A stretch of DNA of 64,000 nt from a virus (IMGVR_UViG_3300044820_000139:1430-65429); one strand, 5' to 3'; positions 34,614 to 55,297 are shown, numbered from the stretch's first letter. The notes: a model not told the origin generated them from the sequence alone. Program-made: numbers and translations.

Positions 34614-34889
34614 TTACGAGGAAACGGCTTCTACGGGCGTGTCTGGCGTCGAATCAGGAGCAGGTTCGGGAGCAAAGCTTCCCACGTTGAAAGATGCGCC
34701 TGTTACATTGCGGTTATAGCCGTTTGAGTCGACGGGGCTCGCCTGCGATGACCCGCTCACCCAGACATTGACAAGGGGTCCAGAGGCGCGATCAAGAGCG
34801 TCCATGGCGTGATAGATTTCAATAGCCGCATCGCGCAGTTCATCCTGCACCTGCTTTTTACTACCTGAAAAACTGATAACCCAAGACAT
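34614..34889 (-). CDS. Hypothetical protein (MSW-start family)
   Basis: 91 aa, GAAGGAG RBS, directly downstream of the tmRNA coding piece. Confidence 0.65.
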   Translation of the reverse strand: MSWVISFSGSKKQVQDELRDAAIEIYHAMDALDRASGPLVNVWVSGSSQASPVDSNGYNRNVTGASFNVGSFAPEPAPDSTPDTPVEAVSS

Positions 34890-34958
34890 TGCGTTTCTCC
34901 TTCGGCGTAAACTGTGCCAGGATTCTGTTGCCAGGCCCCCGGCTTGCCCCGGCTGTTT

Positions 34959-35039
34959 TTAGGCAGCCATTTGAAGCGCTTCGGTTGCGACCGGGAAGGT
35001 CAGAACCTTGGCAAGCTTCTTACCGTCACGTGAAGTGGC
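34959..35039 (-). other. tmRNA tag reading frame: ATSRDGKKLAKVLTFPVATEALQMAA
   Basis: Resume codon GCC after pk1 (TTGAT/ATCAA) and ACAGAAAACT; stop lies in the GGCTG/CAGCC hairpin; ends ...AA like ClpXP tags. Confidence 0.8.
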
Positions 35040-35124
35040 AGTTTTCTGTTTGATTCTCGTTACGGTGAGCATCAATCCCGGCACGAAACTGTACTCCGCT
35101 GATCCCGTCGAAACCGTGACAGGC

Positions 35125-35224
35125 CCACCTGATTCCATCAAAAGCGCCTCTATTTCTGTGTCCCTCGCATACCCGAGGAGGATTGCTTTCACTGGGCTCA
35201 CACATCTTTGATGGAATCAGGTGG
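35125..35224. repeat. 18-bp perfect inverted repeat closing the tmRNA intervening segment
   Basis: CCACCTGATTCCATCAAA (35125-35142) and TTTGATGGAATCAGGTGG (35207-35224), in the same register as the acceptor stem. Confidence 0.95.
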
Positions 35225-35462
35225 ACCTGGCGGGAATCGAACCCGCGTCCGAAATCACCTTTGTACAGCATTGACGTGCGTACTAATTGCGACACTGGCC
35301 ACTATCCAGCATTCATCTGTTCGGGTTATATGCCGGGAACTCGGCAGTGTTCTTCCGAGACGGACCCTATTTAGAGAGAGGATGCTTTCAACTGCATCGC
35401 CGCAAACCTTGGGGGGCGTCTTGGTGACCGTCCCTCCACCACTCGGTCTACATCGGGGTTGG

Positions 35463-36091: not shown

Positions 36092-36314
36092 AAGAGCGGC
36101 CCTCGGTCTTGCGCCCATTCGGTTACCGCCTCAGACGCAAACTTAAAAGGATCGCGGATCCTTGCAACTCCCTGGGATCGGGCGCATATGCTCGGAGAAG
36201 CATTTTTCCGTCCCAACAACCTGCAAAGCTCCGCGACATCGTGGGCCCAGCTGCCGGCCGCTCTCCTTCGCCAAGCCCCAAGGCCAGCGAAGCGGCAGAA
36301 AGCTGGCGCCGAGC

Positions 36315-36608
36315 CTAACCGACAAAATTTGCGATTGGCTCAAACTTCACAGTAAGCTGGGCGTGGCCATTCACATCGCCCGATCTCCAGGATGTCCCTG
36401 CCGCCTCAACCCGCACACCGCCCGGATTCTCAAGACTGAGCAGAAAATTCAACTGCGCTTCGATGGCTTTCTTCGTCAAAGCCGCCGCGGCGAACTCGTG
36501 CTTGAACCCTTCAGTCTTTTCCAGGTTCTCCAGAATCGGCTTGAATTGCTCTTCTAGCGACTGCTTGACCGCTGCCGCCCTTCCTGTCGCTGCTACACTC
36601 CAACTCAT
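36315..36608 (-). CDS. Hypothetical protein (MSW-start family)
   Basis: ATG 36608 behind AGAGGAG; MSWSVAATGRAAAVK... Confidence 0.65.
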   Translation of the reverse strand: MSWSVAATGRAAAVKQSLEEQFKPILENLEKTEGFKHEFAAAALTKKAIEAQLNFLLSLENPGGVRVEAAGTSWRSGDVNGHAQLTVKFEPIANFVG

Positions 36609-39115: not shown

Positions 39116-39356
39116 CTTTCAACCCCTCAGCCTCAATTGTGGCTTTCATTTCGTCGAATTGCTGTTTGTTAAAGAGAATCAAGCAGGCTTTCAACTCGCC
39201 AAACATAAGAGCAGCTAACACGTTTCCTGCTATTCCCATAGTGATCTGGCTGCCAGCCTTAACCGCTTTCATGTTGAGAACTTCGGCACCCATGCGAATA
39301 TCCTTGTTCTCATCTGACATTCGTTTCAGAACATCAAAATTGTTTACTTCAGGCAT
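39105..39356 (-). CDS. Hypothetical protein
   Basis: 83 aa ORF overlapping both neighbours. Confidence 0.65.
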   Translation of the reverse strand: MPEVNNFDVLKRMSDENKDIRMGAEVLNMKAVKAGSQITMGIAGNVLAALMFGELKACLILFNKQQFDEMKATIEAEGLKDGN

Positions 39357-40512
39357 CTCTCAATCCCTCCAGCCAGTAGGCCCACTCCTGCAGCATCTGC
39401 TTGCGTTCGTCGCCGTATTGGTAACGGTTATAAATCCCGCGCACTCCAGGCTGTGTGTGATTCAAAGCTTTTTCGATCCATTCCGGGTTGTACTTCATCT
39501 CCGTCAGGTGTGTGCTGGCCGTCCGGCGCAGATCGTGCGGCGTAAAATGCGGCATCCCCCACTTAATGCGGTTCATCGCCTTGTTGAGCGTCGCCGGTCC
39601 CATGGGTTCGGTCAGCGAGTCGCGCATCGGCAGCACTACATCAGCATTGCCGGCCAGACCTTTCAGGTGCAAAAAGAGTTGGTGAGCGCGCTGGCTTAGA
39701 TAGACGATGTGCGGCTTGCCGGTCTTCGAGAGCTCCGCTGGTACTTCCCATAGGCCCACGTTCAGGTCAACGTGTTCCCAGCGCGCGCACCGCAGTTCGC
39801 TCTTGCGGCAGAGAGTCAGCAGCATCAACTCGAGAACGGTCCCGATTCTTCCCAGGCGTACATCCAGCACCTTTTGCAGGAAGATTTTCAACTCAGCCGC
39901 GCTCAGATAGCGCTCCCGGCTGTGGTGGCGCGTCACAAAGCGCAGCGGCGTCCGGTCGACGGGATTGGCCTCAGAGACGCCGCAGACGCGCCCATAATCG
40001 AACAGCCGCTTGAGCAGGTGCCGAATCGCAGCGGCGGCCTCTGGGCTTCCCTCGTCGCGGCGGGCGAAGATCAGCCGCTGCACCTCTTCGCCGGTCACAC
40101 GGTTCATTGGCCGGGCACCCAGCGCTGGATAGACGTCGCGCTTGAGGTAGCGCTCAACAGTCTTCGGCTCCTTGCGGGCTGGCGTTACCACCTCGGCCAT
40201 CCAACGGGCGCCGAACTCTTGCACTGTCACCCGGTCGCCGGCACGCAGCCGCTCGCGTCGTTGATGCTCTGCTGCGCTCTCGCCCCGCGCCACAATCTCA
40301 GCCATCAAGTCCCGCCGCTTGCGCGCAGCGTCGAGCGACATCCGCGGCCATTGCCCGAGAGTAAGGCTCTCGCGCTTGCCGGCCAGAATGTAGCGATAGA
40401 CCCAGGACTTGCGGCCAGAAGGCTGCACAACCAGCTCAAGTCCCGCGCCCGCGCCGGCGGAGTAGCGCACAGTGCGCGGTGCCAGCTTGCGGATTTGAGT
40501 GGTGGTCAGCAT
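39349..40512 (-). CDS. int: Tyrosine recombinase/integrase (P4-like, N-terminal arm-binding domain)
   Basis: GLELVVQPSGRKSWVYRY arm domain; CRKSE (R), KTG (K), HDLRRT, LNH, YNRY (Tyr). Confidence 0.9.
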   Translation of the reverse strand: MLTTTQIRKLAPRTVRYSAGAGAGLELVVQPSGRKSWVYRYILAGKRESLTLGQWPRMSLDAARKRRDLMAEIVARGESAAEHQRRERLRAGDRVTVQEFGARWMAEVVTPARKEPKTVERYLKRDVYPALGARPMNRVTGEEVQRLIFARRDEGSPEAAAAIRHLLKRLFDYGRVCGVSEANPVDRTPLRFVTRHHSRERYLSAAELKIFLQKVLDVRLGRIGTVLELMLLTLCRKSELRCARWEHVDLNVGLWEVPAELSKTGKPHIVYLSQRAHQLFLHLKGLAGNADVVLPMRDSLTEPMGPATLNKAMNRIKWGMPHFTPHDLRRTASTHLTEMKYNPEWIEKALNHTQPGVRGIYNRYQYGDERKQMLQEWAYWLEGLRDA

Positions 40513-53408: not shown

Positions 53409-53639
53409 ATGGACAATCATTCTGCGGTTTTGGACCCGCCTCTTGATCTCAATGCGCCTCGACCGTGCATTGGTTGCGACGCGATTTGCTATGCCTGCGG
53501 CTCTCCAGTGTATGCTGGAGTGCGTTACTGTACCGCTTGTACTCTGGAAATTGATCGGCCCAATTTAAATAAGCTAGCTGAGAGGTTTGCATGCGAATGG
53601 CGAGCCGAGATCAAAGCTGAGCGCCGCAAGGCTGCCTAG
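53409..53639 (+). CDS. Small zinc-ribbon protein
   Basis: CIGC, CYAC, CTAC; GGAGG RBS. Confidence 0.65.
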   Translation: MDNHSAVLDPPLDLNAPRPCIGCDAICYACGSPVYAGVRYCTACTLEIDRPNLNKLAERFACEWRAEIKAERRKAA

Positions 53640-55297
53640 CGCTTCGTCACCGTGCGCCCGATTCGCCGGCCGCTCAATGCAATTCCCCGGCTCGCCTTCT
53701 GCTCTTCGGTTCGCAGTTGCTGGTTGCGCTGCCAGGCGTGGCGGGCCAGGCTGGTCTCATCCATCCCGTCCTTGCGCATCTGGTCGATCTCTTCTTCCAA
53801 AGCCATCCTCTTTGGCTTCACGCTCTCCGCAATCCAACTGTTCCAGGCATACGCTGATTCGTCGTAACAGTCGTCCTGTGGGTTGCCCTTTTCCTTCTTG
53901 ACGGCGTTGCGATCGTCGATTGTCCGGCTGGTCAGAGTGTTGAAGGTGTACGGGCAGGCGGTGGTTACCACCAGCGAGCGATTGCTCAGACCATTGTAGA
54001 GGTGCTGCGCGTTGCCCATGGGATCATGAGCGCCCAGCACGCACGGAACGCCATGCGCAGCGAACACTTCCTTGATGATCTCGTAGTTGCTTCGACCCGT
54101 GCCGGTGTGTTGGTCGTTGGCCGGGTCGGTCATGGCAAAGAGTATCCGCGGTCCTTCTGGATCGCGCGGTCGAAGCTTCTTTAGCCAGGCATCCTGTGCC
54201 GGCATCTTGGGATCGTCGCTCGCCGCAAAACCATCTTTGCAGATTCGCCGGGCCAACTCCTGCGAAGCCATCTTGCGCACCACGCGCTCGCGCACTTTGA
54301 AGACCTTACCTGAGGGAGCCACGGTGTACATTCCCACCGCGGCGGCCGAGTTGCCAAAGCCATAATCGATCGAGATGAAGTGACCCCACCACCACTCGTC
54401 AGGAACCTCCTGAATCGGCAGCATGTACTCCGGTCGAAGGAATGGAAAGTAGAGGCCTTCAGCGTTGCACCAGCAGCCATAGAGCAGCTGCTGCTGAATC
54501 GCCTCGGTCTGCATAAGCAAGGCGTCAATCTTTTCCTGATCATAGAGGGGATTGTCGATCACGCGGGCTGGGATGAAGGCCGTTGTCTTCATCGTAGGCT
54601 TGTCATCGGAGGGCCAGCGCGTTCCTCTGTAAATTCGTCCAGGATAAACGCTGGTCTCCGACGGTCGATCGTCCTCGCGGCTGGCTGGATAATGTACAGG
54701 GCACTTGCCACGCAGAAATACGCCCATCTGCCATCCCTGGCCGGGGCCGCCGGGGTTTGGTGTGAAGCGCGCGCGCGCGTGAAGCATCTGCCGCCGCGGG
54801 GGAGCCAGCCAACCCATCAACTCGCGGATCAGCTTCTCGGGGTGCTGGTTGCTTTCATCTACACCCAAGTAACTGCGTGGGTTGCCGCGGTATTTCTCCA
54901 GGTCTTTTGGATGTCGCAGGTAGCCCGGTTGAATCTGGCCGCCATTGGGAAAAACCCAAGCAAAGCCGGAGAACTTACCTGTTTTTTTCCATTGAGCTCC
55001 AAGGGGTTCGTACATCCGTTGCATTTGGTCAGAGATTTCCTGCATATCCACATAGGACCGCCGCAGGACTAGGGCTCTCAAATAAGGGTTGCGATACTCC
55101 TGCATCGCGTCAGCCGCAAGAAATGAGGTTTTCCCGCCACCTGAGGCACCTCCGTACATAAGCATTTGGGCGCGGCAGTTGATAGCCGCTTGCTGGGCTG
55201 GGCTCAGCGGCCACCAGGGCGGTCTCCATCCAGCAGGATGTAAATCGTAAGGCGGTGCAATTAAGGGTGGATAAGGTGAGATCGTGGCCGTGGCCAT
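53636..55297 (-). CDS. terL: Terminase large subunit
   Basis: Walker A YGGASGGGKT, Walker B GVDES, FTPNPGG, nuclease IDYGFG and DDCYDES. Confidence 0.92.
   Translation of the reverse strand: MATATISPYPPLIAPPYDLHPAGWRPPWWPLSPAQQAAINCRAQMLMYGGASGGGKTSFLAADAMQEYRNPYLRALVLRRSYVDMQEISDQMQRMYEPLGAQWKKTGKFSGFAWVFPNGGQIQPGYLRHPKDLEKYRGNPRSYLGVDESNQHPEKLIRELMGWLAPPRRQMLHARARFTPNPGGPGQGWQMGVFLRGKCPVHYPASREDDRPSETSVYPGRIYRGTRWPSDDKPTMKTTAFIPARVIDNPLYDQEKIDALLMQTEAIQQQLLYGCWCNAEGLYFPFLRPEYMLPIQEVPDEWWWGHFISIDYGFGNSAAAVGMYTVAPSGKVFKVRERVVRKMASQELARRICKDGFAASDDPKMPAQDAWLKKLRPRDPEGPRILFAMTDPANDQHTGTGRSNYEIIKEVFAAHGVPCVLGAHDPMGNAQHLYNGLSNRSLVVTTACPYTFNTLTSRTIDDRNAVKKEKGNPQDDCYDESAYAWNSWIAESVKPKRMALEEEIDQMRKDGMDETSLARHAWQRNQQLRTEEQKASRGIALSGRRIGRTVTKR

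Follow-up and report, generated by a model that had tools for sequence, protein, structure and literature searches.

A circularly permuted tmRNA gene of a temperate soil phage represents a distinct lineage that also occurs in cultured Tunturiibacter phages

A complete permuted tmRNA gene in a temperate phage

The window (the whole 64,000-nucleotide stretch of viral DNA that was analysed) carries a circularly permuted tmRNA gene that is real, complete, conserved, structurally constrained and phage-borne. By analogy with known two-piece tmRNAs, we consider it probable (roughly 0.7) that this is a functional ssrA gene supplying ribosome rescue during infection. The gene belongs to a distinct lineage with 11 other members, found on peat and soil contigs and in the cultured Tunturiibacter phages Tunturi 3, 4 and 5.

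The window comprises bases 1430-65429 of a 65,429-bp IMG/VR virus record that has direct terminal repeats and is rated 100% complete; its source is a complete temperate soil phage of about 65 kb. Besides the large terminase (TerL, 53636-55297, 553 aa), it encodes a helicase/methyltransferase protein, a GroES/GroEL pair and a tyrosine integrase (39349-40512) with the domains Arm-DNA-bind_3, Phage_int_M and Phage_integrase. Searches of the phage record found neither smpB nor an RF-1-domain rescue factor. The first of these results confirms the claim of a sequence-only reading that the phage has no smpB, so that host SmpB, AlaRS and RNase P would be needed.

That reading had also proposed the permuted tmRNA itself and had named ARAGORN and the permuted Rfam model as the tools with which to check it. 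Both call a permuted tmRNA and, with the complete phage record, they support a phage-encoded gene. ARAGORN reports one in the window, at 34868-35311 on the minus strand. In a scan at Rfam gathering thresholds, tmRNA_permuted (RF04321, curated cut-off 47 bits) matches 34959-35279 (minus strand) at full length (model positions 1-213) with 85.9 bits and an E-value of 5e-15, and a second match, to alpha_tmRNA (RF01849; cut-off 50 bits), covers 34913-35333 and scores 53.6 bits. On the minus strand, the T-arm, acceptor 3' strand and ACC (35246-35220) precede the acceptor 5' strand and D-loop (35126-35107), so the 3' end of the tRNA-like part does lie ahead of its 5' end, as had been read and as the ARAGORN permuted flag confirms. 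We place the gene at about 34913-35279 (minus strand). The span first assigned to it, 34950-35460, holds the core gene, but the 3' tail of the coding piece reaches to about 34913, and 35280-35460 is leader rather than core. The parts, in the order of transcription and with the basis for each in brackets, are as follows.

35407-35441, minus strand: conserved leader motif TGGTGGAGG, a variable hairpin and CCCCAA(A)G (alignment, sequences)
35223-35279, minus strand: core of the acceptor piece (RF04321 alignment; RNAalifold consensus and covariation, 12 sequences)
35279-35275, 35268-35263 and 35256-35250, minus strand: helix 2 5' strands GCACG, CTGTAC and GATTTCG (RF04321 alignment, RNAalifold)
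35246-35230, minus strand: T-arm GCGGG/TTCGATT/CCCGC (sequence)
35229-35223, minus strand: acceptor 3' strand CAGGTCC (sequence)
35220-35222, minus strand: discriminator A (35222) and CC (sequence compared with relatives)
35127-35219, minus strand: intervening segment of 93 nt, predicted to be removed in maturation (fold; 23-nt inverted repeat)
35081-35126, minus strand: start of the coding piece (RF04321 alignment, sequence, RNAalifold, covariation)
35126-35120, minus strand: acceptor 5' strand GGGCCTG, with G1 at 35126 (sequence)
35115-35107, minus strand: D-loop GGTTTCGAC (sequence)
within 35081-35126, minus strand: helix 2 3' strands CGGGATC, GTACAG and CGTGC (sequence, RNAalifold)
35040-35080, minus strand: PK1 region and A-rich lead-in to the resume codon, with the block TGATGCTCACCNTAACGAGANTCAAAC (family-specific block)
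35080-35078 with 35065-35063, minus strand: candidate PK1 stem 1, CGG with CCG (sequence)
35075-35071 with 35054-35050, minus strand: candidate PK1 stem 2, TTGAT with ATCAA (sequence)
34959-35039, minus strand: tag reading frame, from the resume codon GCC at 35039 through 26 codons, ATSRDGKKLAKVLTFPVATEALQMAA, to the stop TAA at 34961-34959 (ARAGORN)
34913-34958, minus strand: 3' tail of the coding piece with the conserved motif CCTGGCAACAGAA (Rfam alpha/beta alignment; motif family-wide)

The individual elements named beforehand were likewise found in place. The ends GGGCCTG/CAGGTCC form seven of seven acceptor pairs and include G3-U70; the canonical T-arm, the D-loop and the three helix 2 segments (GATTTCG/CGGGATC, CTGTAC/GTACAG and GCACG/CGTGC) all lie where they had been put; and the tag frame ends in LQMAA, ARAGORN giving the same tag. 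The final A of CCA is unencoded in the window, where the next base is T (35219), and ACCA is encoded in 11 of 11 relatives.

The acceptor stem is continued by the paired ends of the intervening segment, making an unbroken helix of about 23 bp. Folding of the window precursor (T-arm plus this helix) gives -63.4 kcal/mol (z -4.9), which none of 200 shuffles equalled. Across the family the segment ranges from 4 to 155 nt and its sequence is not conserved, which implies that the processing signal must sit in the tRNA-like fold and not in the spacer. The shortest version, of 4 nt, is in L138 (L138:166-347; CCACCA-TGA-GGGCCTG), and the longest is in Tunturi 4 (L145).

In L076, L137 and L138 the acceptor piece follows the leader motif directly; in the window, where the folding energy of the motif is no better than that of shuffles, an insert of about 130 nt comes between the two. 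The TGGTGGA of the leader is complementary to the tmRNA 3' end, TCCACCA. At the other end of the gene, the 3' tail stops just short of the ribosome-binding site that serves the following gene (ATG at 34889).

Structural constraint across the family

We aligned the 12 family members after re-permuting them, derived a consensus structure by RNAalifold and compared it with 500 shuffles. The acceptor stem, the T-arm and all three helix 2 segments are recovered. In the 25 predicted pairs, 95.9% of the alignment cells are canonical, against 77.0 +/- 1.6% in the shuffles (maximum 81.6%), and 16 of the pairs show compensatory double changes (shuffle mean 9.9, maximum 14). Strong covariation marks acceptor stem, T-arm and helix 2 alike. 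The acceptor stem is a perfect 7 bp in all 12 members, with G1-C, G2-C and G3-U invariant, and positions 4-7 take eight different, covarying sequences.

The pseudoknot PK1, which had also been claimed, fares less evenly. Its candidate stems are conserved: six members have GCCGG...CCGU for stem 1 and three (L033, L096 and L130) have GCAGG...CCUU, a compensatory change of C:G to A:U, and our reading of the sequences gives stem 2 as TTGAT/ATCAA for the window and TTGTGA/TCACAA for Tunturi 4. However, a brute-force search for H-type pseudoknots in single sequences did not rise above shuffles.

An assembly error that swapped the two halves is ruled out, as 12 independent sequences, among them the finished genomes of three cultured phages, all show this order.

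A distinct lineage of two-piece tmRNAs

The family was defined by BLASTN together with a 27-nt block around PK1 (TGATGCTCACCNTAACGAGANTCAAAC) which, among the matches listed, is confined to this family within 110 viral permuted tmRNAs. Its members other than the window and the Tunturi phages are given below.

L076, L106 and L129 (one sequence): 82% identical to the window over both pieces; tag ATNRDSAKSAKVLAFPAMPEALPMAA
L107, L136 and L139 (one sequence): tag AEPYALPMAA
L131 and L137: tag ATPFELPMAA
L138: tag ANSYELPMAA
L033, L130 and L096: long tags ending in LVMA

Members score below or near threshold on all the classical Rfam models. In a focused search, the window reaches 56.5 bits on the beta model RF01850, below its cut-off of 84, and its relatives reach 45-81 bits; the beta-like viral copies L012 and L042 score 149-155 bits on RF01850 and 134-142 bits on RF04321. 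The window's alpha match (53.6 bits against 50) is marginal, and beta outranks alpha in the focused search. The best classical model varies among the relatives, beta scoring best for most, and the cyanobacterial model RF01851 was never reported as the clan winner for the window or its relatives, its own score being masked by the clan filter.

We also built a maximum-likelihood tree from the tRNA-like domain (re-permuted), helix 2 and the PK1 region of the 12 members, L128 and 80 beta-like viral sequences. In it, the 12 members and L128 part from every one of the 80 beta-like sequences (support 95/99); the branches leading to the Tunturi sequences are long, which leaves their exact position unsure. 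Judged by model scores and tree, the lineage is distinct from the alpha, beta and cyanobacterial types. It may go back to an independent permutation event, as the sequence-only reading had suggested.

The lineage is described in no paper found in the literature searched. BLASTN against deposited phages gave matches limited to the universal T-arm, and deposited phages hold no close TerL, the nearest being at most 33% identical. We looked for a bacterial source with two signature scans of one genome per species (185,579 species), which gave no matches to these exact patterns, a form of search that divergent copies could escape. In the sources examined, the lineage is confined to DNA of phage or metagenome origin.

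L131, which is related to the window phage, offers a comparison of gene neighbourhoods. Its fibre-like gene is 51% identical to that of the window, its integrase 45%, and three further genes match. The window tmRNA lies between fibre-like genes and the integrase module, 4 kb from int, and that of L131 occupies the same place, between the fibre and int modules and 1.4 kb from int. A search of IMG/VR for integrase relatives with which to test this linkage of tmRNA and int found none. The ORFs flanking the window tmRNA belong to no recognisable family, and a scan around it returned no sigma-70-like promoter or terminator on the strand of the gene.

tRNA arrays enclose the tmRNA gene in the relatives L130, L131, L134 and L135. 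In L131, a complete tRNA-Met (L131:1698-2115) abuts the 5' end of the acceptor piece, which suggests co-transcription and shared processing by RNases P and Z.

Cultured phages and the host

Matches to RF04321 place the lineage in three cultured phages, with 86.4 bits for Tunturi 5, 79.2 for Tunturi 4 and 63.3 for Tunturi 3; Tunturi 1 has no match to the model, and Tunturi 2 was outside the comparison.

PP885687, 43441-43975: Tunturi 4 tmRNA (L145; RF04321)
PP885688, about 157899-158195: Tunturi 5 tmRNA (L144; RF04321)
PP885686, about 88172-88396: Tunturi 3 tmRNA (L146; RF04321)

Among these three, ARAGORN finds the Tunturi 4 copy only. The GenBank records leave the tmRNAs unannotated, with feature-free gaps of about 500-700 bp at these places, and the description of these cultured Acidobacteriota phages, which are lytic in culture, never mentions tmRNA (Demina et al. 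2025; PMC11924767). More generally, pipelines that rely on tRNAscan alone label such genes 'unknown tRNA' or miss them.

The window phage and the Tunturi genomes share three weak protein matches only. It is therefore the tmRNA and not the phage backbone that links them, and unrelated phages carry the lineage.

Immediately upstream of the Tunturi 4 tmRNA, and slightly overlapping the 5' end called by ARAGORN, lies gp53 (L177:1447-1794; PP885687 43946-44293), a protein of 115 residues that has an RF-1 domain (42.7 bits; cut-off 35) and a GGQ motif. By its sequence, gp53 fits an ArfB-type alternative ribosome-rescue factor, and gp53 and the tmRNA may form a phage 'ribosome-rescue module'. Such an ArfB-like gene beside the tmRNA was seen only in Tunturi 4, with no homologue in the window or the other loci examined.

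The Acidobacteriota themselves use a one-piece tmRNA: Supplementary Table 2 of the tmRNA database, covering 2,144 Acidobacteriota genomes, lists 1,589 standard forms among 1,595 tmRNAs, and five 'Permuted (beta)' (PMC11915505). These five entries may be copies of this phage lineage, and the sporadic 'permuted' tmRNAs that the database lists for non-proteobacterial phyla hint at phage DNA in the same way. The window phage had been assigned to a probable Acidobacterium, and a host among the Acidobacteriota is indeed probable, given that the tmRNA lineage is common to Tunturiibacter phages and that one TerL homologue (56% identity) lies in a Terriglobales MAG. Against this, a closer TerL homologue (70%) is in a MAG labelled Gammaproteobacteria, so the only two organism labels obtained from TerL homologues conflict.

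The value of the Tunturi phages is that their Tunturiibacter hosts are culturable, and phage and host tmRNA can be told apart both by form (two-piece or one-piece) and by tag. This makes three questions testable: whether the phage tmRNA works with host SmpB and AlaRS, what role the long tags have, and whether rescue benefits the phage.

Relation to known tmRNAs

The sequence-only reading took the known phage tmRNAs to be one-piece and a permuted form in a phage to be new. That premise reflects the knowledge of 2014, when the list comprised the Bxz1 group, DS6A and Bacillus phage G (Hudson et al. 2014; PMC4131195), and the novelty falls away, since two-piece phage forms were catalogued in 2022 and are abundant in IMG/VR. 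Buchholz et al. (2022) reported a two-piece ssrA in phage Melnitz and, using ARAGORN, counted 53 two-piece forms among 133 unique tmRNAs in 18,146 phage genomes, mostly in marine phages (PMC9004378). The 2025 tmRNA database holds 79 phage sequences and 11,946 permuted sequences (PMC11915505). Our own scan of IMG/VR, with a pattern demanding the permuted order (T-loop, 100-130 nt, D-loop), matched at least 120 contigs; among the matches listed, ARAGORN calls a permuted tmRNA in 108, and these have mostly beta-type tags such as ANDEQFALAA. Phage two-piece tmRNAs being established already, what is new here is a lineage carried by unrelated soil phages, three cultured Tunturi phages among them.

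The window tmRNA is like those of Melnitz, the pelagimyophages and the cyanophages in being a complete permuted tmRNA in a phage without SmpB, and like that of Melnitz in being of a type mismatched with the lineage of the host (PMC9004378). Those phages are, however, marine lytic myophages with tmRNAs of alpha or cyanobacterial type, the Melnitz copy being linked to a glutamine riboswitch (PMC9004378), whereas the window is a temperate phage from peat or soil whose tmRNA is of another sequence lineage and has a 26-residue tag. With the beta two-piece tmRNA (RF01850) and the beta-like IMG/VR copies the window shares the gene order, the GGTTTCGAC D-loop, the three-part helix 2, the CCTNGNAACAGAA motif that follows the tag and a hairpin in the intervening segment. 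It differs from the beta type in its PK1 block, and its family has tags ending ...ELPMAA or ...ALQMAA instead of ANDExFALAA.

The mechanistic model is the two-piece tmRNA of Caulobacter crescentus, in which a precursor is cut into acceptor and coding pieces that base-pair and act in trans-translation (Keiler, Shapiro & Williams 2000, cited in PMC9004378). That gene is chromosomal and alpha-type and serves its own cell with its own SmpB, unlike the phage-borne gene of the window. The one-piece phage tmRNAs of the Bxz1 group and Bacillus phage G, and the DS6A RNA, are also ssrA without smpB; the former have the standard gene order, and DS6A has the tRNA-like domain only, the coding part being absent (PMC4131195).

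The tag

In the 11 members that allow it to be placed (all but Tunturi 3), the distance from G1 to the resume codon is 85-91 nt. The tags end in a hydrophobic residue followed by Ala-Ala, the 26-residue tag of the window in ...ALQMAA. Five members have tags of 10 residues, and in the others, the window included, the length is 26-34. The window tag resembles a 17-residue in-frame extension placed before an end of the family type (ATEALQMAA compared with ATPFELPMAA).

Between the tag frames of the window and L076 there are four synonymous and nine non-synonymous codon differences, with no stop and no frameshift; differences that are mostly non-synonymous (9 of 13) imply weak constraint on the peptide over much of the long tag. 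An AKVLxF core, encoded by AAGGTTCTG (window 35020-35012, minus strand), is identical in the window, L076 and Tunturi 5. The nucleotides AAGGTTCTG can pair with CAGAATCCT in the conserved 3'-tail motif (window 34925-34917, minus strand). From the sequences, conservation of AKVLxF may equally reflect pairing of the RNA with the 3'-tail CAGAATCC and not a peptide motif.

Tags of at least 20 residues occur in 24 of the 108 viral permuted tmRNAs from IMG/VR, among the matches listed. These long viral tags, of 20-32 residues, consist of an in-frame extension plus a canonical tag, for example ATADTFDFSAMSFTGNTVRGA followed by ANDSRFALAA. The contigs include L024, L025, L040, L043, L056, L061, L068, L093, L102 and L124, and a DTFDFSAMSFTGN motif recurs in many contigs.

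Proposed function and alternatives

If the gene works as a two-piece ssrA, it would be transcribed within a long minus-strand transcription unit. In the precursor, the acceptor stem and T-arm would fold as a tRNA-like minihelix, lengthened by the intervening segment. Host RNase P would cut 5' of G1 (35126), and the end after A35222 would be completed by host 3' trimming and the CCA-adding enzyme, leaving two pieces, acceptor and coding, which would stay joined through pairing in the acceptor stem and in all three helix 2 segments. Host AlaRS would charge the tmRNA via G3-U70, and host SmpB and EF-Tu would bring it to ribosomes stalled on broken mRNAs. Translation would then resume at GCC (35039), and the tag would target the product to host proteases. 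The phage would probably gain by keeping the ribosome pool free while mRNAs are degraded or cleaved during infection, alongside the action of the phage GroES/GroEL. We infer the steps of maturation, charging and tagging, and the benefit, from analogy with the Caulobacter two-piece tmRNA. Lacking an SmpB of its own, the phage would need a tmRNA compatible with a host that itself uses the one-piece form. Also counting against this reading are the unencoded final A of CCA, the promoter and terminator scan that returned nothing on the gene's strand, the mostly non-synonymous differences in the tag and the single-sequence PK1 search that did not beat shuffles.

Other ways to view the gene grant it a different role. 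The phage tmRNA might re-programme rescue, out-competing the one-piece host tmRNA and adding a different, longer tag (the 17-residue extension plus a canonical end), so that tagged proteins meet another fate: another protease or adaptor, delayed degradation, or none. Such a role would make sense of a second tmRNA in hosts that own one already (1,589 of 1,595 standard in Acidobacteriota), where a mere spare copy seems redundant; the recurrence of extended tags in nearly a quarter of the listed viral two-piece tmRNAs (24/108) and the AKVLxF core common to three members are also in its favour. However, the five members with ordinary 10-residue tags mean that the lineage can do without a long tag, the extension changes mostly non-synonymously, and conservation of AAGGTTCTG may stem from its pairing with the 3' tail, so we regard re-programming as unlikely. 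A broader version holds that this is a fourth two-piece tmRNA lineage, phage-only, which originated in a permutation event of its own, in viruses that infect bacteria with one-piece tmRNA (the Acidobacteriota), and was passed between unrelated phages of that host group, its extended tags redirecting host ribosome rescue and protein tagging rather than simply boosting them; taken as a whole, this proposal is doubtful.

The position of the gene raises the question of integration. The combination of Arm-DNA-bind_3, Phage_int_M and Phage_integrase found in the window integrase is common among integrases that target tRNA and tmRNA genes. A P4-type integrase could thus target a host ssrA or tRNA gene, with the phage tmRNA, or its T-arm and 3' end, being or holding an attP that restores the target; the short distance to int (4 kb in the window, 1.4 kb in L131) and the frequent use of tmRNA genes as targets of islands (PMC4383910) fit with this. 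Yet an attP needs a 3' fragment only, and the gene here has both halves, the PK1 region and a conserved tag frame. Among relatives the acceptor stem varies compensatorily, as fits pairing with its own coding piece and not identity with a host target, Tunturi 3-5 are lytic in culture and yet retain the tmRNA, and in other contigs it sits in tRNA arrays. We consider a link to integration very unlikely. The plain case of an ssrA fragment serving as attP, with a 3' portion only and adjoining the integrase, was rejected on the presence of both halves and the tag frame and on the 4 kb to int.

It is more improbable still that the RNA is a decoy which inhibits host trans-translation by absorbing SmpB, or a decaying, non-functional capture. 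The DS6A-type RNA, a tRNA-like domain, does inhibit tmRNA when expressed in E. coli (PMC11915505; PMC4131195), and the lack of an encoded terminal A of CCA in the window copy also counts in favour. A decoy would have no need of an intact coding piece, however, and here the tag frame, resume context and stop codon are conserved across 12 divergent members and covariation reaches through helix 2. Additionally, gp53 beside the Tunturi 4 tmRNA and GroES/GroEL in the window favour a role in translation and protein quality control, and speak against both a passive attP fragment and a decoy. Thus, ribosome rescue by a functional two-piece tmRNA remains our preferred reading.

Other elements of the genome

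A borderline Rfam match to the CyVA-1 RNA motif (36236-36315, minus strand; 44.0 bits against a cut-off of 41.4) lies about 900 nt upstream of the window tmRNA and shares its direction of transcription. As a clue to the host, the accessible part of the published account of the motif gave no usable taxonomy. Several close homologues of the window TerL (P0002, P0007, P0014, P0055, P0057 and P0065) have lengths of 690-924 residues and contain domains of inteins or homing endonucleases (PF14528, PF13403, PF14890); the window TerL is intein-free.
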